Shown: in pieces, positions 4,689 to 54,845 of the stretch
How positions within the stretch are numbered: the first letter of the stretch is position 1
Layout of the letters: each line of letters begins with the position of its first letter
From: Kordia sp.
Lineage (GTDB): Bacteria > Bacteroidota > Bacteroidia > Flavobacteriales > Flavobacteriaceae
DNA: 64,000 nt
Direction of reading: 5' to 3'
NCBI RefSeq assembly: GCF_050633145.1
Contig: NZ_JBOEFY010000037.1
Span: forward strand, 7,648-71,647
Notes under the pieces: model-generated
The model's input: the letters and a program-made list of their open reading frames with translations, nothing else
Told to the model about the DNA's origin: nothing
Databases searched by the model: none
Position numbers and translations under genes: made by a program

Positions 4689-4838
4689 TTAATAACAGTA
4701 AACCCCAGGAGGACAAATTGAATGAGATGGACAGAAGCATGAATGGTTTGGATCTATACCGCCCTTTGTTTCCAAAGAATTAAAATCTGTAATCGTTTTT
4801 TTAGTAAAAGCAAGGTTTTTGATTCGTGATTTTTTCAT
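4689..4838 (-). CDS. Double-glycine-leader peptide P1 (49 aa; core IDPNHSCFCPSHSICPPGVYCY)
   Basis: MKKSRIKNLAFTKKTITDFNSLETKGG leader resembling seven other peptides in the window; 4-Cys core. Confidence 0.7.
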   Translation of the reverse strand: MKKSRIKNLAFTKKTITDFNSLETKGGIDPNHSCFCPSHSICPPGVYCY

Positions 4839-29206: not shown

Positions 29207-29350
29207 TTAGAACGGAGAGCATGAAACAGCTCTGCTACAACTAGGTCTAAAAGTTCCTCTACCACCTTTTACTTGCTCTAATTCATTAATTTTAAAAACA
29301 GAGATTGCTTTTTTATTAAGGCTCAACGATTTAAGATTCTTTTTCTTCAT
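29207..29350 (-). CDS. Double-glycine-leader peptide P2 (47 aa), not in ORF track
   Basis: Manual translation MKKKNLKSLSLNKKAISVFKINELEQVKGG|RGTFRPSCSRAVSCSPF*. Confidence 0.8.
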   Translation of the reverse strand: MKKKNLKSLSLNKKAISVFKINELEQVKGGRGTFRPSCSRAVSCSPF

Positions 29351-29817: not shown

Positions 29818-31434
29818 TTAGAAAATTTCTATTTTATTCAGTTCTTTTATGTAGTAAGATGGATTCAATCCTGTTTTGTTTTTAAAATGTTTTACGAAAG
29901 AATCGTCGGTTTTATATCCTATTTCAGTTGCAATACCTTTTATAGAAAATGATCTGAATTTCTTATCGTTTTTTAATCTTTTTAAAACATATTCAATTCG
30001 TAGCTCATTGATATAATCACTAAAAGTTTTTCCTTTTTCATTATTGATTATCTGTGACAAATAAGTAACATTCGTTTTTGTTTTTTTAGCGACAGAAGTC
30101 AAGTTACAATTCGATTTCAAAAAGTATTCCTGCACTTCCAGTTTGTGTAATCGCCCAATAATTGCTTTGAGAGTAGCATCATCAATTGGAATATTTTTGA
30201 TTTGTTTTTTTGATTTTTTTTGAAATGTTACTTTTTCGTCTTCTTCTAGTGTTGAAATTTTTTCTAGAAGTGTTTTAAATGTTGCTTGATTCGTTTGCTG
30301 CTTTTTAACGTATAAGATGAGCGTTAACAAAAATGCAGAAGTAGCTATTATAATTCCCCATAACATATAATTTATGGTTTGTTTATCTTCTTTTTCTTGA
30401 TTTTGCAATGCAACGATTTGGACTAAAAATTTTTCACTGTCTTTATCATGAAATTTATTCGTTGCGATATCTTTTTTGCGACTTGCCGTATTTTTAATTT
30501 CTATAACTTTATTCAACAAAATAGTAGCTTCCTTATAGTTTCCTTTTTTCGAATAACATTGTGCCAATAGATTGTGCGTGTTTATTACATTATCTTTTTC
30601 TAAATCTTCATCTTTTATATAAGCCATTGAATTCAATAAATACTGAATTGCTTCATCATATTTTTGAAGATCATAAAAGCAAAGCGCTATTGCATAATTT
30701 GTATTTACTGTTGGGAAGAAAGGACTTGCTATGTTGTTTTTTTTTATGATTGTTTCTGCTTTAAATAGACATTCAAATGCTAGTTCCCATTTTTTTTGAT
30801 GTCTATAAAATTTTCCTTTTTTTATGTATAAGTCAACAAGTCCCTCTTGAAAGTGTAGTTTTTTAGCTAGTGCAATTCCTTTTTTTATATGTGGAAACAT
30901 TGCTTCGTAATTCCCTTGCGCCATATAAGCATCACATATAGTTGTCAATACGCGCACATGGTTTTTTTTACCTTTAAAAGTAGCTTTGTCGATTAAGGTT
31001 AATGCATACACGGAAAAATCTACAGCCTTATCTTCTTTATTGATAGAAGGTAAAAAAGCTATTAGACCAGAATATGCAATTAATTCTTGATCTATGTTTT
31101 TATTCTTTTTTGCAATAGTCAAAGCATTGTAGTAAGCTTCTATAGCTTTTTCGTTTTTCCAACTGAAGTAATATGAATTCCCAAGTTTCATGTGGGCTTT
31201 AAACAGTAAGTCTTCATCTTTTATTTCTTCTGCTATCTCGATAGCTTTTACGAAATAGGATATACTGTTTACATAGTTTTCTTTTTTTTGCAATGCATTG
31301 CCTACATCTAGATATTGTTGTACCGTTTGCCCTTTAGTTTCTTTAATAGTATGCGCCTGCTGTGGGAATGAATAATGTCCTACTAAAAAGAAAATAATTC
31401 CTATGAGAATAACTGGTGCTTTTTGTGTATTCAT
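29818..31434 (-). CDS. Membrane-spanning one-component sensor: signal peptide-TPR-TM-AraC HTH
   Basis: Hydrophobic N-terminus, TPR helices, TM YMLWGIIIATSAFLLTLILYV, AraC LTSVAKKTKTNVTYLSQIIN..FSDYINELRI..IATEIGYK. Confidence 0.88.
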   Translation of the reverse strand: MNTQKAPVILIGIIFFLVGHYSFPQQAHTIKETKGQTVQQYLDVGNALQKKENYVNSISYFVKAIEIAEEIKDEDLLFKAHMKLGNSYYFSWKNEKAIEAYYNALTIAKKNKNIDQELIAYSGLIAFLPSINKEDKAVDFSVYALTLIDKATFKGKKNHVRVLTTICDAYMAQGNYEAMFPHIKKGIALAKKLHFQEGLVDLYIKKGKFYRHQKKWELAFECLFKAETIIKKNNIASPFFPTVNTNYAIALCFYDLQKYDEAIQYLLNSMAYIKDEDLEKDNVINTHNLLAQCYSKKGNYKEATILLNKVIEIKNTASRKKDIATNKFHDKDSEKFLVQIVALQNQEKEDKQTINYMLWGIIIATSAFLLTLILYVKKQQTNQATFKTLLEKISTLEEDEKVTFQKKSKKQIKNIPIDDATLKAIIGRLHKLEVQEYFLKSNCNLTSVAKKTKTNVTYLSQIINNEKGKTFSDYINELRIEYVLKRLKNDKKFRSFSIKGIATEIGYKTDDSFVKHFKNKTGLNPSYYIKELNKIEIF

Positions 31435-31685: not shown

Positions 31686-31850
31686 TTACCCACAAGCTAT
31701 TGCACCTGTTGCGCAAAAAATATCTGTTGGTGGCTCACCATTTCTACATTCAGTAACCGTATTAAATATACTTCCTCCTGTAATTTTATTAGCATGAAAA
31801 TTAGAGATTACTTCTTTGTTGATCTGTAACTTTTTTAATGACTTTTTCAT
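31686..31850 (-). CDS. Double-glycine-leader peptide P4 (54 aa), not in ORF track
   Basis: Manual translation MKKSLKKLQINKEVISNFHANKITGG|SIFNTVTECRNGEPPTDIFCATGAIACG*. Confidence 0.8.
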   Translation of the reverse strand: MKKSLKKLQINKEVISNFHANKITGGSIFNTVTECRNGEPPTDIFCATGAIACG

Positions 31851-35749: not shown

Positions 35750-37450
35750 ATGAATATTTCTAAAATTTCTTTGTTACTTATTTTACTTCCTTTTTGGGTT
35801 TTGGCTAATAATCAAGATTCCCTTTCTATTTTTAAAGAGAAAAACCTTTCGCAGCAACATACATATATTAAGGAACGATTAAATTCCGTAAAAAATATAG
35901 ATACTTATATTACTGCTTTTTCAGATAAAGCAAGAGGACAAAAAGACACACTTTATATTGCCAAATCGTATTATTTTAAATATCGCACCTACAGAAAAGC
36001 AAAAGCATATTCAGAAGCACATTCGGCAATTGACAAAGCCATTTTACTTGCAAAGAGCAGCAAGAAAGATTCATTATTAGGTTCTTTTTTTCATGCCAAA
36101 GGCGCTACTTTTTATATGCAGTCTAATTTTAAGGCTGCATTGGATTACTATTTAAAAGCGTATGACATTATGCGTACTAAAAGCTCAATTAGTAAATTAT
36201 TGACACTAAAATTTAATATTGCAGTAATGAAACTAAGAGTAGGAAAAACGCAAGAAGCATCTCTTCAATTTTATAAGATTATCCACTCGTACGATTCGCT
36301 ACTCAGTACAAAACCCAATTCATATGCTTTGAAAAAAAATTTTATTATAATGCTCAATAATACAGCGAAAGCCCGTACTGACTTAGCTATGTACGAGCAC
36401 GCAATTGAGTTGTATTCAAGAAGTCTTTTATTGAACGAAACTATTAATTATCTTCCTGCGAAGTGTATTGCTATTGGCGGGAAAGGAAATGTATATACCG
36501 CAGAAAAAAAATATGAGAAAGCTATTGAAAAACTAAACGAAGCATTAGCAATTTCAACTAAAGACAAAGAATCAGACTTAGTTACTCCTTATTTATTACT
36601 CGATAAAGGAAAATGCCTATTTGGATTAAAAAAATATAAAGAAGCCTTAGAAAATTTCGTAGAAATAGATCGTATCATACAAACTAAAAAACTGAATTTC
36701 CCAAACTTAGACGAAGCATATCAATTTCTTGGAAAAACGTATGTTCAATTGGGAAATCATGAAAAAGCGACGGAGGTCTATGACCAGTATATTAAACGAA
36801 AAAAGCTAAATGATGAAAAACGCTTTGAGTTGTATCAAACTATTTTTGAAGGATATGATTTGAAGAATGTAGAATATCGTGCCGAGAAAGCTGCAAAAGA
36901 GTCCAATTTATTTAAAAGCTACTTTACACAAGCAATTCTAGCAATTATACTTTTAATTATTTCTGCAATTGCCTTCTTTATGTATTATAGAAATAAGCAA
37001 AAACAAAAGTTTACAAAGTTTCATGCACTTATTAAAGAGTTAAAAACGACAGAGGTCAAGGATGTAGAAACCGTTCCTACTGGTTATGTATTATCGGACG
37101 AAAAAGCTTCTAAAATATTGAACAACTTGGAAGTTTTGGAAACGAAGTTATTTTTTCTTGATAAGAAATACAACCTTTCCACCTTGGCAAAAAAGTGTAA
37201 TACTAATTCGAGTTATTTATCTCAAGTGATTAATAAATATAAAGAGAAGACTTTTTCAGAATATATGACTGATATGCGTATTACTTATGTTTTAAATGCG
37301 TTAAAAAATGATAAAAAATTACGCTCGTACACCATTCAATCTATTGCAGAAGAAATTGGTTTTAAGAAATCAGAATCGTTTGCAAAGGCTTTTAAAAAAC
37401 GAACAGGATTTAATCCTTCTTATTATATTAAAAATCTTGACAAGCTTTAG
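35750..37450 (+). CDS. Membrane-spanning one-component sensor: signal peptide-TPR-TM-AraC HTH
   Basis: MNISKISLLLILLPFWVLA signal, TPR repeats, TM AILAIILLIISAIAFFMYY, AraC LSTLAKKCNTNSSYLSQVIN..IAEEIGFK. Confidence 0.88.
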   Translation: MNISKISLLLILLPFWVLANNQDSLSIFKEKNLSQQHTYIKERLNSVKNIDTYITAFSDKARGQKDTLYIAKSYYFKYRTYRKAKAYSEAHSAIDKAILLAKSSKKDSLLGSFFHAKGATFYMQSNFKAALDYYLKAYDIMRTKSSISKLLTLKFNIAVMKLRVGKTQEASLQFYKIIHSYDSLLSTKPNSYALKKNFIIMLNNTAKARTDLAMYEHAIELYSRSLLLNETINYLPAKCIAIGGKGNVYTAEKKYEKAIEKLNEALAISTKDKESDLVTPYLLLDKGKCLFGLKKYKEALENFVEIDRIIQTKKLNFPNLDEAYQFLGKTYVQLGNHEKATEVYDQYIKRKKLNDEKRFELYQTIFEGYDLKNVEYRAEKAAKESNLFKSYFTQAILAIILLIISAIAFFMYYRNKQKQKFTKFHALIKELKTTEVKDVETVPTGYVLSDEKASKILNNLEVLETKLFFLDKKYNLSTLAKKCNTNSSYLSQVINKYKEKTFSEYMTDMRITYVLNALKNDKKLRSYTIQSIAEEIGFKKSESFAKAFKKRTGFNPSYYIKNLDKL

Positions 37451-38098: not shown

Positions 38099-38293
38099 TT
38101 ATACACACGGATGTACTGACAAGCAAGGGTTTGGAATATCTGTATTTCCAGTAAAAGAATTTTCACAAAGTCTGTGTTCTTTAGTTGGCTCAACTGGACA
38201 TAAAATCACTGAGATAATTCCTCCTTTTGCACTTTCTAAATTAGAGATCAATTTCTTGTTTAATTTTAAACTTTTTAAACTTCTTTTCTTCAT
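38099..38293 (-). CDS. Double-glycine-leader peptide P7 (64 aa, 4-Cys core)
   Basis: MKKRSLKSLKLNKKLISNLESAKGG|IISVILCPVEPTKEHRLCENSFTGNTDIPNPCLSVHPCV; start moved from 38365. Confidence 0.8.
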   Translation of the reverse strand: MKKRSLKSLKLNKKLISNLESAKGGIISVILCPVEPTKEHRLCENSFTGNTDIPNPCLSVHPCV

Positions 38294-47864: not shown

Positions 47865-49376
<1,512 letters not shown>

Positions 49377-49710
49377 TTAAGTGTTTAATGTTTAGGTTAT
49401 TAAATACCGAAAAACGAATTTCATATTTTATGCTAAAACATGACCTTTTTTCGCGGTGCAAAGATATATTTTATTAATTAAAATAAGTAGTGTTTTGTGA
49501 TGATTTTTAAAAATTCTCAAAAAACCCTTGATTATACATAGATTTCCTACGGTTCATATAATTCCATAAATAAATAAAACCATCTTTTTTGGCTTTTTAC
49601 TAACGATAAGTCTCTAAATTTATTTCTATATTTCCAGCATTATTTTTCTAGTTTTTAAGATTAAACTGATTGGATTATGCATTCATAATGATTAATAGCA
49701 TATTGATAGT

Positions 49711-50277
49711 ATGGCAGATAAATTAAGTAACTTTCTAAACACACTTTCCGAAGGAAATGAAGAAGATATTATTTCTCTTTATAAAGAAGTGTTTCCAAAA
49801 GTGTCGCATTTTATTGTTAGCAATAATGGTCGTATTGATGATGCCGAAGATATTTTTCAGAAAGCCTTGCTACAAATTATAGTTCGATATAGAAATGAAC
49901 CTTTTGAAATTAAAACTTCTTTTGAGAATTATTTTTTTACTGTTTGCCGAAATTTATGGAGACGCGAGTTGAATGTATCAAAATTTAAAGCAAAGCATGT
50001 TGACCATTTGGAAAATATTAGTGCTGTAGATGATGCTGCATTTTCTATTGTAGAACAAGAACGCTACGAACTTTTTTCCGAGAAATTAGCACTATTATCA
50101 GAAAATTGCAAAAGTATCCTGAAACTGTTTTTTGCTAAAACATCATACGAAAGTATTATGCAAACACTACAGTATAATTCTGAAAACGTTGTACGACAAC
50201 GAATTTTTAAATGCAAAAAACGATTGATTGAATTGATAAAGAAAGATCATAGATACGATGATTTAAAAGATATATGA
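49711..50277 (+). CDS. ECF-type RNA polymerase sigma factor
   Basis: DDAEDIFQ region 2, FENYFFTVCRNLW, region 4 LSENCKSIL.LF..I...L.YNSENVVRQRIFKCKKRL. Confidence 0.9.
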   Translation: MADKLSNFLNTLSEGNEEDIISLYKEVFPKVSHFIVSNNGRIDDAEDIFQKALLQIIVRYRNEPFEIKTSFENYFFTVCRNLWRRELNVSKFKAKHVDHLENISAVDDAAFSIVEQERYELFSEKLALLSENCKSILKLFFAKTSYESIMQTLQYNSENVVRQRIFKCKKRLIELIKKDHRYDDLKDI

Positions 50278-51074
50278 TGATGGAAGACGACATATTAATA
50301 GCACGGTTTTTAAGAAATGAACTTTCTGACGAAGAGCAAGCTGCTTTTTTGAAACGACTAGAAAGCGATGACCTTTTTAAAGAACAAGTAAAGTTAGAGC
50401 AACAATTACTAAACCTTCTTGGTGAAACATATTGGAGTTATGCTATAAACGATACTAATAAAAGAATAGAAGCGTATAAAAACATTCTTAAGTCGGACGA
50501 CACTCAAGAATTGAAAATTACTATTTCAAAAGCAATTGAAAGCTATAAGAGAAAGCAGTTAAAAGATGATAGAAAAGAAGCTTCTCCTCGTAAAGGCAAT
50601 TTTCAACTTGCTATCCGCATTGCAGCCATATTTGTTATTCTTTGCTCACTTTTTTGGTACTTCTCAAACAATAGCATAGATCATAAAGCACTTACTGATG
50701 CAGCTTGGCAAAAAAATATTGGTTTAGATTTTACAGTAAGAAACGGTTCATCAGACAGCACTAAAGCCACTTTAGCTAAAGCCTTACACCTTTATACAAA
50801 CAAAGAGTATAATCAGGCTTTAAGCACATTAAAAGCTTACAGCGCTTCTTCTAATCATTATAAAGATATTTTATTAGTCCGCGCTTTGTCTTATCACCAA
50901 TTAAACAAAACAACAATTGCGTTTCAAACATTGGATAGTTTGGCAATATATGCTCCAGATATTTCCAAATGGTACAAAGGTCTTATTCACTTAGAAAATG
51001 ACGAATTAAAGAAAGCCGCTCAGTATTTAGAAATTCCCTCAACATCGAATCAAGAAATTAAACTAAAGAAGTAA
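50274..51074 (+). CDS. Putative membrane anti-sigma factor with periplasmic TPR-like domain
   Basis: ARFLRNELSDEE..F..RL anti-sigma-like N-terminus, TM IRIAAIFVILCSLFWYF, TPR-like C-terminus; ATGA overlap with sigma gene. Confidence 0.7.
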   Translation: MMMEDDILIARFLRNELSDEEQAAFLKRLESDDLFKEQVKLEQQLLNLLGETYWSYAINDTNKRIEAYKNILKSDDTQELKITISKAIESYKRKQLKDDRKEASPRKGNFQLAIRIAAIFVILCSLFWYFSNNSIDHKALTDAAWQKNIGLDFTVRNGSSDSTKATLAKALHLYTNKEYNQALSTLKAYSASSNHYKDILLVRALSYHQLNKTTIAFQTLDSLAIYAPDISKWYKGLIHLENDELKKAAQYLEIPSTSNQEIKLKK

Positions 51075-54000
51075 ATGAGAAAAATTGTTTGTTTTATCTA
51101 CATATTCATTTTAACAACAGCATGTTTCCAGCTTCATGCACAACAGAGCAATACAAGTTTAGATACTGATTTAACTAAAGGTAAAGAATTGCTGTTTTAT
51201 GGAAAATATAAAGACGCAATTTTAGTATTTAATAAAGCACTGAAACAGGCTGAAAGCCTAGAAGATTCTATAAGCATTGCAGGCTGTTACAACGCACTTT
51301 CAAAAGCATATAACTATACTTCACAATTGAAAGAGTCTATGCTGTATGCAGAAAAAGCAATGCAATACAGTCAAGGAGAACATATTACTCAGAAAAAAGA
51401 AGAAGCAGATGCACTTTTTAACTTAGGAATTGTACAAGGGCAAAAACGTTTCTCAAAAGAGTCGCTTGAAAATCATACAGCAGCATTAGAGATTAGGCAG
51501 ACTTTTTTTAAAGATGATCTTTTTCAAATTGCCAACTCACATTTTAATGTTGGTGTTGCGTTACACCGACAAAGGCGCTTAGCGGAAGCAATGAAAAAAT
51601 TTGAGACTACTTTGACTATAGAATTAAAAGACACGCCACAACGCAGCATATTACACGCTGATATTTACGAAGCTATTGGATATATTAATTATGATCTTGG
51701 AAAGTTTGACAAAGCTCTTACTTTTTTTAAAAAGACATTGCATTTAGCACAACAAACTTACGAGGACAATCACCCTTATTTCGGAAAGGTATATAATGAA
51801 TTAGGAATGATTTATTCTATGAAGAATGAATTCAACAAAAGTTTAAAGTATTACAATAAATCATTAAGCGTAAGCATTGCGAACCATGGCATAGATATGA
51901 GTGCCGATCAAGTACGTGTACATTTTAATATTGGCACGATATACGAAAAACTTGACATACAAGAGAAAGCAATATTTCACACAAAAAAATCACTTGCGAT
52001 TGGCACTAAAATTTTAGGCGCAACACACCCGCAAATGTTTTATCCGTATAGTCAACTTGGGACTATATATGGTGACGAACGTGGAATTCCGTATGTAGAA
52101 AAAGCGCTTGCTATTCTCTTGGGTTCTGATCCTGTGAACTTTGTTATTGTTTCTTTTCAATACGAATATTTAGCTAACATTTATTCTAAGGTTGAGAATT
52201 ATCCTGAATCGCTAAAGTATATGGAAAAGACATTAGAACTTCGCTTGCAAATTTTTGGAGAACGAAATATAAATACGATTCGCAGCTACAACAATTTAGC
52301 TAAAACATATGCGCAACTCAAGGAATTTGACAAGGCGTTATTGTATTGCGAAAAATCGATCGCTGCTAACACATTAAATATTGCAAGTCAACAGAATTTG
52401 ACAGATTCTTTTACTTCTGTAAATTATGTAGATCAAAACTTTTTAGTTGAATCTGTAAAAACAAAAGCAGATATTCTCGTTCTTTTGTATCAAGAACGTA
52501 AAGAAAAAAAACACCTTCTTGAAAGCATTAAATTGTATGATGAAGCTGATGCTTTGGCAAGTTTGACACGAAAGTCAAAACAAAATCATGATGACAGAAT
52601 ACAATTTTCCGAAACGGTAAAAGCTATTTATGCAAAAAATATACAAACGAAGCTTTTGCTAAGTGAAATTGAAAATAATACTTCTTCATTAGTTGAAACT
52701 TTTTATGCTTCTGAAAAAAGTAGATCGCATACATTGCGAGAACTACTAAAACAATCCGAAGTGAAACGAACTGTAAATATTCATACAGATATTATTTCGC
52801 TTGAAAAAACAATTAATATACAACTAGCAAAATTGCAGTCAGAAATTGTAAAAGAAGCTACAGCGCTTAAAAGTGACTCCGTAAAAATATATCAGCTTGA
52901 AGGAAAAGTTTTTGATTTGACTAAACGAAAAGATTCACTTGAAAAACGTATTGAGATTGATTTCCCAAAGTATTACAAACTAAAATATGAAGACACTGTT
53001 ATTGAAATTTCAACCTTACAAGAAAAACTAAACGACAGCACAACACTTATTGAGTTTTTTAAGAATAAGAATGCAGTCTATACTTTTATCATTACAAAAA
53101 AATCGTTCCATGTAAAAAGAGTAGAGGTTGATGATTTAGATTCGAAAATTGAAGCATTAAATAAAGCAATTACTGACAAGAATACTATTCAGTTTACAAA
53201 GTATGCTTCCAACTTATACACAGAATTACTCTCACCAATAAAGTCACATTTTGTAGGCAATGAACTTATTATTATTCCTGATGAATCTTTATGGCATATA
53301 CAGTTTGATTTGCTGTTGACAGAAGCAACTAAAGCGAACCAAAAGCCTGCATATTTACTATATAACTATGCAATAAGCTATGCAAATTCAGCTAGTTTAT
53401 TATTTGATGAAACTGCAAAAAGCACAACTCATTTTTCAAATGAATGTGTTGCGTTTTCATATACAAGCAAAGACACTATTCTAAAAAATAACAATACAAT
53501 TGCTTTATCAAAATTGCGAAATACGCAGGTTGATTTACCTGGAACACGCAAAGAGATTCAGGAAATATCTAACATTTTAGAAGGCACTTATTTTTATGGC
53601 AACGCTGCAAATGAAATGAATTTTAAAAAGTATGCAGGTAATTCTAACATTCTACATTTAGCATTGCATGGTGATATTGATAATAACAACTCAAACAATT
53701 TGAAAATTTACTTTTCGGAAGGCAGCCCTAATGATGATGATAAGTTATTTGGTCATGAGTTATATTCTTTACATATTCCGGCAAATTTAGTTGTGCTAAG
53801 TGCTTGCAATACTGGAAATGGTCAGATTAACAAAGTTGAAGGAATTCAAAGTTTAGGAAATGCATTTCAATATGCAGGCGCAAAAAGTCTTTTGTTAAGT
53901 AGTTGGGAAATTTCAGATAAAACTACACCTGAAATTATGCGATATTTTTATGAACACATAAAAGGCGGAATGCCAAAACACAAAGCGCTACAACAGGCAA

Positions 54001-54197
54001 AAATTGACTTTTTACAAAATGCAGACACTTTTAATGCAGCGCCTTTTTATTGGGGAAGTTTTTATTTACTTGGAGACACAGCTCCAATTCCTTTTTCAAC
54101 GTTCAATTACACTGTTTGGATCATTGGTATTGTTAGTAGCATTGTACTTTTTTTAATTGCGAGATCGTTTCTTAGAAGAAAAAATAATACCATTTAA
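51075..54197 (+). CDS. TPR-CHAT (caspase-like) protease with signal peptide and C-terminal TM anchor
   Basis: Signal peptide, about 9 TPRs, IIIPDESL, ILHLALHG (His), LVVLSACNTG (Cys), PFYWGSF, C-terminal WIIGIVSSIVLFLIA-RRK. Confidence 0.92.
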   Translation: MRKIVCFIYIFILTTACFQLHAQQSNTSLDTDLTKGKELLFYGKYKDAILVFNKALKQAESLEDSISIAGCYNALSKAYNYTSQLKESMLYAEKAMQYSQGEHITQKKEEADALFNLGIVQGQKRFSKESLENHTAALEIRQTFFKDDLFQIANSHFNVGVALHRQRRLAEAMKKFETTLTIELKDTPQRSILHADIYEAIGYINYDLGKFDKALTFFKKTLHLAQQTYEDNHPYFGKVYNELGMIYSMKNEFNKSLKYYNKSLSVSIANHGIDMSADQVRVHFNIGTIYEKLDIQEKAIFHTKKSLAIGTKILGATHPQMFYPYSQLGTIYGDERGIPYVEKALAILLGSDPVNFVIVSFQYEYLANIYSKVENYPESLKYMEKTLELRLQIFGERNINTIRSYNNLAKTYAQLKEFDKALLYCEKSIAANTLNIASQQNLTDSFTSVNYVDQNFLVESVKTKADILVLLYQERKEKKHLLESIKLYDEADALASLTRKSKQNHDDRIQFSETVKAIYAKNIQTKLLLSEIENNTSSLVETFYASEKSRSHTLRELLKQSEVKRTVNIHTDIISLEKTINIQLAKLQSEIVKEATALKSDSVKIYQLEGKVFDLTKRKDSLEKRIEIDFPKYYKLKYEDTVIEISTLQEKLNDSTTLIEFFKNKNAVYTFIITKKSFHVKRVEVDDLDSKIEALNKAITDKNTIQFTKYASNLYTELLSPIKSHFVGNELIIIPDESLWHIQFDLLLTEATKANQKPAYLLYNYAISYANSASLLFDETAKSTTHFSNECVAFSYTSKDTILKNNNTIALSKLRNTQVDLPGTRKEIQEISNILEGTYFYGNAANEMNFKKYAGNSNILHLALHGDIDNNNSNNLKIYFSEGSPNDDDKLFGHELYSLHIPANLVVLSACNTGNGQINKVEGIQSLGNAFQYAGAKSLLLSSWEISDKTTPEIMRYFYEHIKGGMPKHKALQQAKIDFLQNADTFNAAPFYWGSFYLLGDTAPIPFSTFNYTVWIIGIVSSIVLFLIARSFLRRKNNTI

Positions 54198-54580
54198 CAT
54201 ATTAAAAATCAATATTTTATGATTTTATTTCGTTTTTATTCAAAAAAAAGTGAAAAATACTGGGTAACAAATTCCATTTTTTGGAACTATAAGTTATGAG
54301 GGATAACTGTTTTAAAATTAAAAACACATTTATTTATACCATATACTTACTTTCAAACAAGTATTCACAAATTATTTATTCTTACCATAAAGCAGGCGGT
54401 TTTTATCGTTTCAACCTTGAAGCAAACACTGCAACTCTCTCTATTTTCAACCAAAAAGATAAAAAGAGTATTCGCGCAAAGCGAATTACTACTATTCAAA
54501 AATATTTTTTCGCGAAGAATAGACACAACTGTGAGTGTCTTTAAATGTTCACTTTAAGAATTAACTATACAATTTAAATT

Positions 54581-54769
54581 ATGAAAAAAAGAGATTTAAA
54601 ATCATTAAGCCTTAACAAGAAATCAATTTCAAATTTTGATAACAGCGAATTAGTTGGAGGAACAGGTGTAACTAACATTTTTGATTGTCCTTCAGTAAGA
54701 GTGAAGCCACATTGTATTTCTTATGAGTCATTCATTACAATATGTCAGTGTCCTTCAAACGTATGCTAA
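54581..54769 (+). CDS. Double-glycine-leader peptide P8 (62 aa, 5-Cys core)
   Basis: MKKRDLKSLSLNKKSISNFDNSELVGG|TGVTNIFDCPSVRVKPHCISYESFITICQCPSNVC. Confidence 0.8.
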   Translation: MKKRDLKSLSLNKKSISNFDNSELVGGTGVTNIFDCPSVRVKPHCISYESFITICQCPSNVC

Positions 54770-54815: not shown

Positions 54816-54845
54816 AAAATAGGCTGCCAATTGGCAGCCTATTTT
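54816..54845. terminator. Bidirectional terminator (perfect 30-bp palindrome)
   Basis: aaaataggctgccaattggcagcctatttt. Confidence 0.85.

Follow-up and report, generated by a model that had tools for sequence, protein, structure and literature searches.

The window analysed here is the whole stretch of 64,000 nucleotides (nt) from contig NZ_JBOEFY010000037.1 of a marine Kordia species (Flavobacteriaceae; genome of 6.26 Mb, 33% G+C), and the locus in question consists of four genes on its forward strand. The first gene encodes an extracytoplasmic function (ECF) type sigma factor of 188 amino acids (aa; 49711-50277, open reading frame (ORF) and profile match), the second an anti-sigma-like single-pass membrane protein of 266 aa (50274-51074, ORF and family alignment), and the third a protein of 1040 aa that combines tetratricopeptide repeats (TPRs) with a CHAT protease domain (51075-54197, ORF and match to PF12770). 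The fourth ORF (54581-54769), which begins 383 nt past the CHAT gene, encodes P8, a peptide precursor of 62 aa with a double-glycine (GG) leader. As read from the sequence, the sigma and anti-sigma genes are coupled by an ATGA with an overlap of 4 base pairs (bp) (ATG 50274-50276, TGA 50275-50277), and the TAA of the anti-sigma gene (51072-51074) directly abuts the ATG of the CHAT gene at 51075. An initial annotation of this DNA had described the three coupled genes and the GG-leader peptide gene that follows them. Both descriptions hold, and the trio is a real, conserved, and well-delimited module that forms one functional unit.

The sigma factor comprises only the sigma-2 and sigma-4 regions and has no transmembrane segment. 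It scores 51.5 bits against the ECF model TIGR02937, above the curated cut-off of 42.9 and with residues 22-174 covered, and also matches Sigma70_r2. With its length of 188 aa and with the gene of its cognate anti-sigma factor directly 3', as expected for such proteins, it belongs to the ECF (group IV) sigma factors. Its clade has eight paralogs in this genome. An alignment of ten Kordia sigma-upstream regions revealed a conserved box GTCTCTAAATTTATTTCTATATTTCC on the forward strand (49610-49635), about 75-100 nt 5' of the sigma gene. Because TATATTTC resembles the Bacteroidota -7 element TAnnTTTG, this box is probably the basal promoter of the operon. A sigma factor of the same clade is also encoded at C80:38144-41427, where it is followed by a 912-aa protein that has the anti-sigma-like N-terminus of the family and a transmembrane segment, with a C-terminal TonB_C domain replacing the TPRs. 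With this protein, the clade has a sensory output of another kind.

The anti-sigma-like protein has one transmembrane segment (aa 112-130) with a basic flank on its N-terminal side according to hydropathy, which predicts a cytoplasmic N-terminus and a sensory domain outside. The N-terminal domain, predicted to be cytoplasmic, is helical in the AlphaFold2 (AF2) model. The C-terminal domain is predicted to be periplasmic and consists of three TPRs, the family profile matching the consensus TPR with 3e-12. Two motifs are conserved in the family alignment, AWxKxxGLDFxxR next to the membrane (aa 144-156) and the C-terminal tail ..NQEIKLKK. Within the family the tails are either of the type ..P..N.EI[KQ]LK[EK]-COOH, which includes the peptide-linked loci, or of the type ..GVYK..A..L..., and such a conserved free C-terminus could act as a peptide that docks in the groove of TPRs. 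The similarity to known anti-sigma domains is low. The window protein matches the anti-sigma model NF052375 weakly (E-value 0.013, below the cut-off), as do 23 of the 36 family members (best 1.2e-7, all below the cut-off), and there is no zinc motif in the N-terminal domain, whose first 60 residues contain neither Cys nor His. A Foldseek search with the AF2 model (pLDDT 85) gave no match to an anti-sigma domain, and the C-terminal domain resembles the three-repeat peptide-binding chaperones SycD/PcrH (weak E-value of ~7e-3). We infer from its position, its coupling to the sigma gene, and its topology that the 266-aa protein is the anti-sigma factor. Members of the family are paired with a sigma factor in every locus examined, including those of Croceitalea and Adhaeribacter. 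Public records label them only as hypothetical, TPR, or YbgF proteins, so that their role is invisible to standard annotation.

The CHAT protein starts with a hydrophobic segment (aa 4-22 by hydropathy, ending in ..LHA followed by QQ), which is predicted to belong to a signal peptide of aa 1-22. An array of about ten TPR pairs (~aa 30-435, matching TPR_12), a long helical region (aa 454-650), and the CHAT domain follow, the latter covering the full PF12770 profile at aa 709-1001 with 1.8e-53. A C-terminal transmembrane segment (aa 1014-1032; 54114-54170, forward strand) precedes RRK, a basic tail predicted to be cytoplasmic. The dyad is formed by His865 (53667-53669, forward strand) in HLALHG and Cys911 (53805-53807) in LSACNTG, and the combination of a His (H-G) and a Cys (A-C) within a CHAT domain is that of the caspase-like proteases of clan CD. 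The initial annotation had already noted an intact dyad, and both residues are invariant in 72 homologs with 34-84% identity. The signal peptide, the TPR array, and the C-terminal anchor, which it had also described, are seen by hydropathy and profiles. Among the homologs, the N-terminal segment is found in 61 of the 72, the C-terminal transmembrane segment in 70, and the basic tail in all of them. In agreement with the earlier proposal, the protease body and the TPR domain of the anti-sigma factor are both predicted to be periplasmic, on the same side of the membrane. When the AF2 model (pLDDT 83.8) was compared to known structures with Foldseek, the top match was the cryo-EM structure of DdvA (8rot_A, E-value 1.6e-14), followed by human separase and Craspase Csx29. 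Global TM-scores are low (~0.3), which is usual for flexible multidomain chains, and the ranking is therefore indicative and no proof of homology. Searches of the PDB by sequence matched only TPR proteins, both for the CHAT protein and for the anti-sigma profile, and the fold search alone tied the CHAT protein to DdvA, separase, and Craspase. DdvA of Myxococcus is a transmembrane anti-sigma factor with a fused periplasmic TPR-CHAT part, and its partner is the ECF sigma factor DdvS (PMC11506125).

The strongest evidence for a functional tie of the trio is a linkage that has survived both rearrangement and paralogy. The four-gene arrangement is kept in nine other Kordia species, with identities of 62-84% for the sigma factor, 49-79% for the anti-sigma factor, and 57-76% for the CHAT protein. 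For a wider comparison 78 loci with related TPR-CHAT genes were taken from Flavobacteriaceae, and neighbours were sought within 8 kb. At 37 of these loci a sigma/anti-sigma pair of the same family is found within this distance, in colinear, divergent, or convergent orientation. In the phylogeny of the CHAT proteins, calculated with FastTree, the window protein belongs to a clade with 99% local support whose 19 members come from Kordia, Aquimarina, Winogradskyella, and Gaetbulibacter. An adjacent sigma gene is present for each of the 19 and an anti-sigma gene for 18, across three different gene orders. These tree-based counts are safer than a split of the loci into group 1 and group 2 by the pattern of the anti-sigma tail, which misfiled a few Kordia and Aquimarina proteins. 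Within the large CHAT expansion of Aquimarina, only 17 of 57 genes have a sigma neighbour. Tenacibaculum has the colinear trio too, and in Adhaeribacter, which belongs to the Cytophagales, a member of the anti-sigma family and its sigma factor are encoded 2.4 kb from a TPR-CHAT protein of 1203 aa. The Croceitalea sigma/anti-sigma pair has no CHAT gene. The genome of the window has nine true CHAT genes, and for six of the eight sigma paralogs one of these is no more than ~7 kb away, where ~2% would be expected by chance per sigma gene, and at three of these sigma-linked loci an S8 subtilase gene is found directly 5' of the CHAT gene. It is very probable that sigma factor, anti-sigma factor, and CHAT protein work together in one pathway.

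Some of the related loci have an organisation of their own. At C58:18007-25908, C41:41720-45798, and C40:74081-78105, sigma/anti-sigma pairs are divergent from operons that encode an S8 subtilase lipoprotein (409-436 aa) and a CHAT protein of ~917 aa. The first gene of the C58 operon encodes a secreted protein of 1142 aa with a HEIGHNLG motif similar to that of zinc proteases. In Aquimarina sp. TRL1 and A. hainanensis (L041:5577-5946 and L053) a sigma factor of the same clade and a TPR-CHAT protein are encoded ~370-425 nt apart with no anti-sigma ORF. Either the anti-sigma gene has been lost in these two loci or it is too degenerate to be called.

The P8 precursor consists of a leader of 27 aa (MKKRDLKSLSLNKKSISNFDNSELVGG) of the Bacteroidota LxLxK type, which ends in GG, and a core of 35 aa with five Cys. 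Compared to NF038153, the model for leaders of class I lanthipeptides, it scores 18 bits and thus remains below the cut-off of 22. Genes for LanB, LanC, or C39 peptidases are absent from its neighbourhood, which consists of atpDC, the trio, a TonB-dependent receptor gene, and glmS. The genome encodes only four proteins with C39 peptidase domains, all of them on other contigs, so that the processing of the leader peptides must act in trans. The slot behind the CHAT gene is filled at all ten Kordia loci, sometimes by two peptides. In eight of the nine other species it contains P8 orthologs (63-87% identical) with the common core T-G-V-T-N-I-x-x-C-P-S-x-x-V-K-P-x-C, and in the ninth an unrelated peptide. 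The adjacency alone proves nothing, because small genes with an MKK..L.L.K...GG leader number 231 in the genome, or about one per 27 kb, and their Cys-rich cores are unrelated. The window contains five of them: 4689-4838, 29207-29350, 31686-31850, and 38099-38293 on the reverse strand, and P8 at 54581-54769 on the forward strand. A random gene of 3 kb would have a leader-peptide gene within 500 bp with a chance of 10%. Of the nine CHAT genes of the genome, only that of the window has such a neighbour, as chance predicts, and within 4 kb the count is 4/9 compared to 22% expected. A general enrichment of leader-peptide genes next to the CHAT paralogs of this genome is therefore not found.

Outside Kordia, a hidden Markov model of the Kordia-type leader detected no peptide at 70 loci. 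We then used a looser leader pattern, which showed that the linkage to peptides is confined to one subfamily. Neighbouring peptides were found at 8 of 28 loci that have a sigma gene and at 6 of 42 that do not, which is a small difference. They are absent from all of the ~16 sigma-linked Aquimarina loci of group 2, which have the other type of anti-sigma tail. Cys-rich GG-leader peptides are present beside the module in Aquimarina at L055-L059 (divergent from the sigma gene), at L056 also 5' of the CHAT gene, and at L102 (after the CHAT gene), and in Tenacibaculum. The initial annotation had named in advance the absence of such a linkage elsewhere as a point that would count against its proposal, and GG-leader genes do recur beside the subfamily in other genera. 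The tie of P8 to the trio exceeds chance for this subfamily because the slot is conserved, an ECF-type box precedes the gene, and a specific hairpin and box are shared with peptide genes of Aquimarina. The link to peptides is thus genuine for the subfamily but it is not general. In Tenacibaculum xiamenense (L042:2210-4589) a 540-aa fusion of Peptidase_C39, VKOR, and thioredoxin and a 71-aa Cys-rich GG-leader peptide are encoded divergently from the trio. The fusion looks like a maturation enzyme that would cleave the leader and form disulfides.

Leader-peptide genes are also found next to another kind of protein. Proteins of ~540-580 aa that combine TPRs with a C-terminal AraC-type helix-turn-helix domain adjoin leader genes at 29818-31434 (reverse strand) and 35750-37450 (forward strand) of the window and at C6:14939-16669 and C65:2771-4414, and in the C6 and C65 proteins a transmembrane segment is visible by eye. 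Among 31 TPR-only proteins found with the CHAT-family profile, eight have a leader gene within 500 bp, against an expectation of 10%. The TPR-AraC proteins may represent a second, one-component class of peptide regulators with periplasmic TPRs.

Two conserved elements precede P8. The first is the ECF-type promoter-like element TGGGTAACAA-N14-AACTAT in the spacer between CHAT and P8 (54261-54290, forward strand). These 30 nt are kept at all ten Kordia loci, with one copy per peptide in the slot. A first scan of the genome with a 13-mer and two mismatches was uninformative (285 matches, mostly in coding sequence). The pattern GGTAACAA-N16-CTAT has six matches in the genome, all of them intergenic, and other spacings between 10 and 22 have zero to two matches each, mostly within genes. 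The four best copies precede P8, two further leader-peptide genes on C55 and C75, and the operon at C58 that encodes the 1142-aa protein, the S8 subtilase, and a CHAT protein and whose sigma neighbour is the closest paralog (43% identity). As a negative control, a scan with the spacing off by one also gave six intergenic matches, none of which is near a peptide, sigma, or CHAT gene. In Aquimarina, 13 divergent loci have GTAACA(A/T)T in front of sigma as well as CHAT, and CATAACA precedes the sigma gene in the subfamily that is closest to Kordia. From these positions, the element and its related boxes would be the promoter type of this sigma clade, and the chances that P8 depends on the sigma factor appear to us evenly balanced. 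A common promoter of sigma and P8 was considered and rejected, since the conserved upstream blocks differ: GTCTnTAAATnT is all they have in common, and its AT content is too high for it to carry weight.

The second element is a block immediately before P8 (54501-54556, forward strand) that comprises TTTCGCGAAGAAT, the two arms of a 6-bp stem, AGACAC (54521-54526) and GTGTCT (54535-54540), and the box TTTAAATGTTCAC (54540-54552). Hairpin and box (TTTAAATGTTCA) end ~30 nt 5' of the ATG of P8 and are kept at all Kordia loci, even where the core of the peptide differs. The same stem and box are found at the same distance to the ATG (30-35 nt) before the GG-leader genes of Aquimarina, at L055-L059 where these are divergent from the sigma gene and at L102 after the CHAT gene. 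The ~1.5 Mb of loci contain 16 instances, each of which precedes a peptide gene at a sigma-linked locus. The pairing of the stem is held in 96.7% of the cells of the alignment, with two compensatory pairs and additional U-G wobbles, and an RNA element is therefore mildly favoured. In the own genome the stem GACAC-N-GTGTC with the box TTTAA(T/G)TGTTC occurs three times, each 30-31 nt before the ATG of a GG-leader gene. The two copies that do not belong to P8 (C6 ~14170 and C65 ~2539, both on the reverse strand) adjoin TPR-transmembrane-AraC regulators and not sigma or CHAT genes. At L056 (6615-7803 and 12779-13200) and L059 (12702-14796) of Aquimarina, arrays of two to seven tandem GG-leader genes with the leader MKKSLLNLGKALSK..GG flank the module, and hairpin and box are found at the first gene of these arrays only. 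An ORF of 82 aa between the ECF-type box and P8 (54296-54544) was rejected as a gene, its conservation in Kordia being confined to the first ~10 codons.

The four genes are flanked by the divergent atpDC operon and by the convergent gene of a TonB-dependent receptor, and glmS is a further neighbour. The sole strong forward-strand terminator of the locus is a hairpin with a 13-bp stem followed by a T run (54816-54845, listed without a strand assignment), and there is none between CHAT and P8. This terminator is likely bidirectional and common to P8 and the convergent receptor gene. About 130 nt adjoining atpD (49374-49500) are nearly invariant across ten Kordia species. The similarity of TTTTCGCGG in this segment to the block before P8 was considered and dropped, as a promoter and 5' untranslated region of atpD explains it better. 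On its reverse strand the segment contains a perfect Bacteroidota -7 box TAnnTTTG (TATCTTTG), and it is probably the promoter and leader of atpDC, without relation to the sigma locus. For the long 5' region, the predicted folding is no better than that of shuffled sequences (z = -1.4), and an Rfam search of the locus gave nothing except terminator look-alikes. The locus had been described as free of CRISPR, with which our searches agree: there is no tandem repeat array in the window, and apart from a generic TPR model the PADLOC models matched no defence family there.

For DdvA it has been proposed that the signal-activated CHAT part clips the juxtamembrane linker as a site-1 protease and that RseP acts next, but of these steps the RseP-dependent one was shown, as loss of a truncated DdvA, and the cleavage by CHAT was not (PMC11506125). 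A similar chain of events can be imagined for the Kordia proteins. At rest, the sigma factor would be held at the membrane by the anti-sigma factor. A periplasmic signal would bind to the TPR arrays and switch on the dyad of the CHAT protein, which would then cut the anti-sigma factor on the periplasmic side, with AWxKxxGLDFxxR or the C-terminal tail as candidate sites of contact or cleavage. A site-2 protease of the RseP type would clear the stub and release the sigma factor, which could transcribe the genes behind TGGGTAACAA-N14-AACTAT boxes, including P8. This proteolytic mechanism is plausible and readily testable, and we propose the whole chain, in which the CHAT protein is the protease of the anti-sigma factor as in a DdvA split in two, as our preferred, if tentative, reading. 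Several observations weigh against it. Autoproteolysis by the CHAT part of DdvA has not been demonstrated, and dyad mutants had no phenotype in unperturbed cells (PMC11506125). The N-terminal domain of the Kordia anti-sigma factor matches anti-sigma models weakly and lacks the zinc motif, and there is no GTAACA-type box upstream of the window's own sigma gene. Of the related TPR-CHAT genes, 40/78 have no sigma gene within 8 kb, and in Aquimarina the anti-sigma gene is missing from at least two loci with sigma and CHAT genes. In addition, GTAACA-type boxes front CHAT genes or operons in Aquimarina and at the paralogous C58 locus, and a CHAT protein that is a sigma target is equally compatible with a pure output role. 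Boxes that would place CHAT operons and P8 downstream of such sigma factors fit an output role at least as well as that of a trigger. The CHAT protein would then be a sigma-controlled, membrane-tethered protease of the periplasm whose substrates are exported peptides, envelope proteins, or foreign proteins. The signal would be sensed by the anti-sigma factor's own three-TPR domain, a module of the peptide-binding type like SycD/PcrH, or through another protease, and in paralogous loci the CHAT protease is accompanied by a large secreted protein and by an S8 subtilase. The boxes before both sigma and CHAT in the 13 divergent Aquimarina loci, the TGGGTAACAA-N14-AACTAT element before the operon of the 1142-aa protein near the closest sigma paralog, the S8 peptidases that share operons with CHAT genes in three paralogous loci, and the absence of a sigma neighbour beside roughly half of the TPR-CHAT relatives all suggest such an output. 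However, in Kordia and Tenacibaculum the CHAT gene is coupled behind the anti-sigma gene within the operon of the sigma factor, which is the usual position of a co-regulator, and a linkage of 19/19 through three rearrangements exceeds what is the norm for a single member of a regulon. The fused architecture of DdvA also argues that anti-sigma and TPR-CHAT parts act on each other. We consider a pure output role possible although rather doubtful. A target may also be a trigger, and the two roles can coexist in a positive-feedback loop.

The initial annotation had proposed a peptide, possibly P8 or a relative, as the ligand that triggers the cascade. In this fuller model, a C39 peptidase encoded elsewhere would remove the leader of P8, and the exported mature peptide would bind to the TPRs of the CHAT protein or of the anti-sigma factor, the sigma factor would be freed, and P8 would be transcribed. 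Such an autoinduction is consistent with the slot that is filled at all Kordia loci, the Cys-rich GG-leader peptides beside the module in Aquimarina and Tenacibaculum (there with the C39-VKOR-thioredoxin gene), the hairpin and box common to the module-linked peptide genes of Kordia and Aquimarina, and the ECF-type box before P8. The same hairpin and box precede two other peptide genes, each next to a TPR-transmembrane-AraC regulator with a predicted periplasmic TPR domain, and in the MibX/MibW system an exported RiPP, a peptide made by the ribosome and modified after translation, provides a precedent for freeing an ECF sigma factor (PMC4203916). Nevertheless, with 231 leader genes in the genome the proximity to CHAT genes is as chance predicts (1/9 within 500 bp), and the group 2 loci of Aquimarina have the sigma factor without a neighbouring peptide, in line with the small overall difference of 8/28 to 6/42. 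The unrelated peptide in the slot of one Kordia species would be easier to understand for a product that diversifies than for a signal that is fixed, and of such Cys-rich GG peptides the majority should be RiPP or bacteriocin-like products. We therefore regard autoinduction by P8 as unlikely. A quorum-type circuit, in which an exported Cys-rich GG peptide would be read by the TPRs of the CHAT protein, the anti-sigma factor would be cut, and the sigma factor would drive the peptide gene, in parallel to the TPR/AraC regulators beside peptide genes with the same cis element, seems quite improbable, and the same applies to any P8-type peptide as the ligand. At the other extreme, P8 might be a mere neighbour with no functional tie to the trio in a genome saturated with leader-peptide genes. 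Five of these genes lie in the window, the chance to find one within 500 bp is 10%, synteny within the genus also keeps the unrelated atpD and TonB-receptor flanks, and two of the peptide genes with hairpin and box have no CHAT gene anywhere near. Yet the slot was kept over ten Kordia species, and even duplicated together with its own box, while sigma factor and CHAT protein diverged to 57-84% identity, and the rare cis element recurs at module-linked peptides of a second genus, whose gene order is different. The 30-nt box has exactly the spacing of the site before the paralogous CHAT operon, and no terminator separates CHAT from P8. A P8 without any connection is thus very unlikely in our view. 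Finally, the CHAT protein might act without proteolysis of the anti-sigma factor, either as an RseB-like scaffold or protector on its TPR domain or tail, or as the maturation protease of GG-leader peptides. Docking of TPRs to TPRs or to the tail is plausible given the conserved extreme C-terminus ..N.EI[KQ]LK[EK] of the anti-sigma subfamily, and the dyad of DdvA is found at rest, its active site being incomplete (PMC11506125). That none of the 72 homologs deviates at His865 or Cys911, however, argues for catalysis. The usual enzymes for the removal of GG leaders are C39 peptidases, of which this genome encodes four elsewhere, and no clan CD protease is known to cut after Gly-Gly, which counts against a role in maturation. 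Both variants are highly improbable.

If the tentative reading is true, the split module would be a natural two-component DdvA. Because protease and substrate are separate proteins, the idea of the CHAT protein as a site-1 protease could be tested directly. It would also place caspase-like signalling into the periplasm of a large group of marine Bacteroidota. In addition, hundreds of GG-leader genes are present in Kordia and Aquimarina, and the module may account for the activation of some of them. If the CHAT protein is only an output, the locus would be an ordinary ECF regulon with an unusual protease.

Several known systems share part of this organisation. The precursors of Bacteroidota class I lanthipeptides of the pinensin type have an LxLxKx5L...GG leader (PMC7268733). 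P8 resembles them in its LxLxK leader with a Gly-Gly end and in its core rich in Cys, Ser, and Thr. Unlike at lanthipeptide loci, no LanB, LanC, or C39 gene is found next to P8, its score to NF038153 is below the cut-off, and its leader type is shared by 231 genes with unrelated cores. In the model for microbisporicin an exported lantibiotic precursor inactivates the anti-sigma factor MibW and frees the ECF sigma factor MibX (PMC4203916). There as well, an ECF sigma/anti-sigma pair is tied to the gene of a ribosomal peptide, with feed-forward control by the exported peptide in the Mib system. However, that system is actinobacterial, contains no CHAT protease, and has its biosynthetic genes clustered with the peptide, whereas no genes for modification or export adjoin P8. 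In classical regulated intramembrane proteolysis RseA is cut by DegS and then by RseP. The proposed Kordia mechanism would be similar in having a single-pass anti-sigma factor whose periplasmic domain blocks site-2 cleavage, and a dedicated periplasmic site-1 protease that responds to a peptide-like signal, and the Kordia genome does encode an RseP-like M50 protease. DegS is a PDZ serine protease, whereas the candidate for site 1 belongs to the cysteine proteases of clan CD, carries a large array of TPRs as sensor, and is encoded in the operon of the sigma factor. The type III-E Craspase consists of Cas7-11 and the TPR-CHAT protein Csx29, which cleaves Csx30 and thereby controls the ECF-like sigma factor RpoE (PMC10028731). 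In both cases a TPR-CHAT protein with a caspase-like dyad is genetically tied to a sigma factor and its inhibitor, and Csx29 is among the top Foldseek matches. But Craspase is cytoplasmic, activated by target RNA via Cas7-11, and encoded together with Csx30, Csx31, and a CRISPR array, while the Kordia CHAT protein is predicted to be exported, has no CRISPR array nearby, and is coupled to a membrane anti-sigma factor unrelated to Csx30. The initial annotation had compared the locus to Craspase, but DdvA/DdvS is the nearest known system.

Literature searches found no paper on a split arrangement in Bacteroidota or on a link between CHAT proteins, sigma factors, and Flavobacteria, and the main text of the paper on the re-classification of ECF sigma factors does not mention CHAT. 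The fused forms of DdvA are found only in Myxococcota and one Comamonas (PMC11506125). With DdvA/DdvS the Kordia locus has in common the ECF sigma partner, the single-pass anti-sigma factor, and the periplasmic (here predicted) TPR-CHAT part with its His/Cys dyad, and DdvA is the top structural match of the Kordia CHAT model. There are also considerable differences. Anti-sigma factor and TPR-CHAT are two proteins in Kordia, of which the latter has its own signal peptide and C-terminal anchor, the periplasmic part of the anti-sigma factor is a three-TPR domain only, and its N-terminus has none of the zinc ligands of the CHCC three-helix anti-sigma domain of DdvA. The CHAT active site of DdvA lacks the three-helix motif. 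The host belongs to a different phylum, the Bacteroidota, and while DdvA/DdvS controls a CBASS/CRISPR defence island, the Kordia locus has no defence context and a peptide gene downstream. Because anti-sigma factor and CHAT protein come from separate genes with their own starts, stops, signal peptide, and anchor, the locus is not a member of the DdvA type, though it would work alike if at all. Judged from the domain composition and the structural models, the Kordia locus is best read as a split DdvA/DdvS system composed of two polypeptides.

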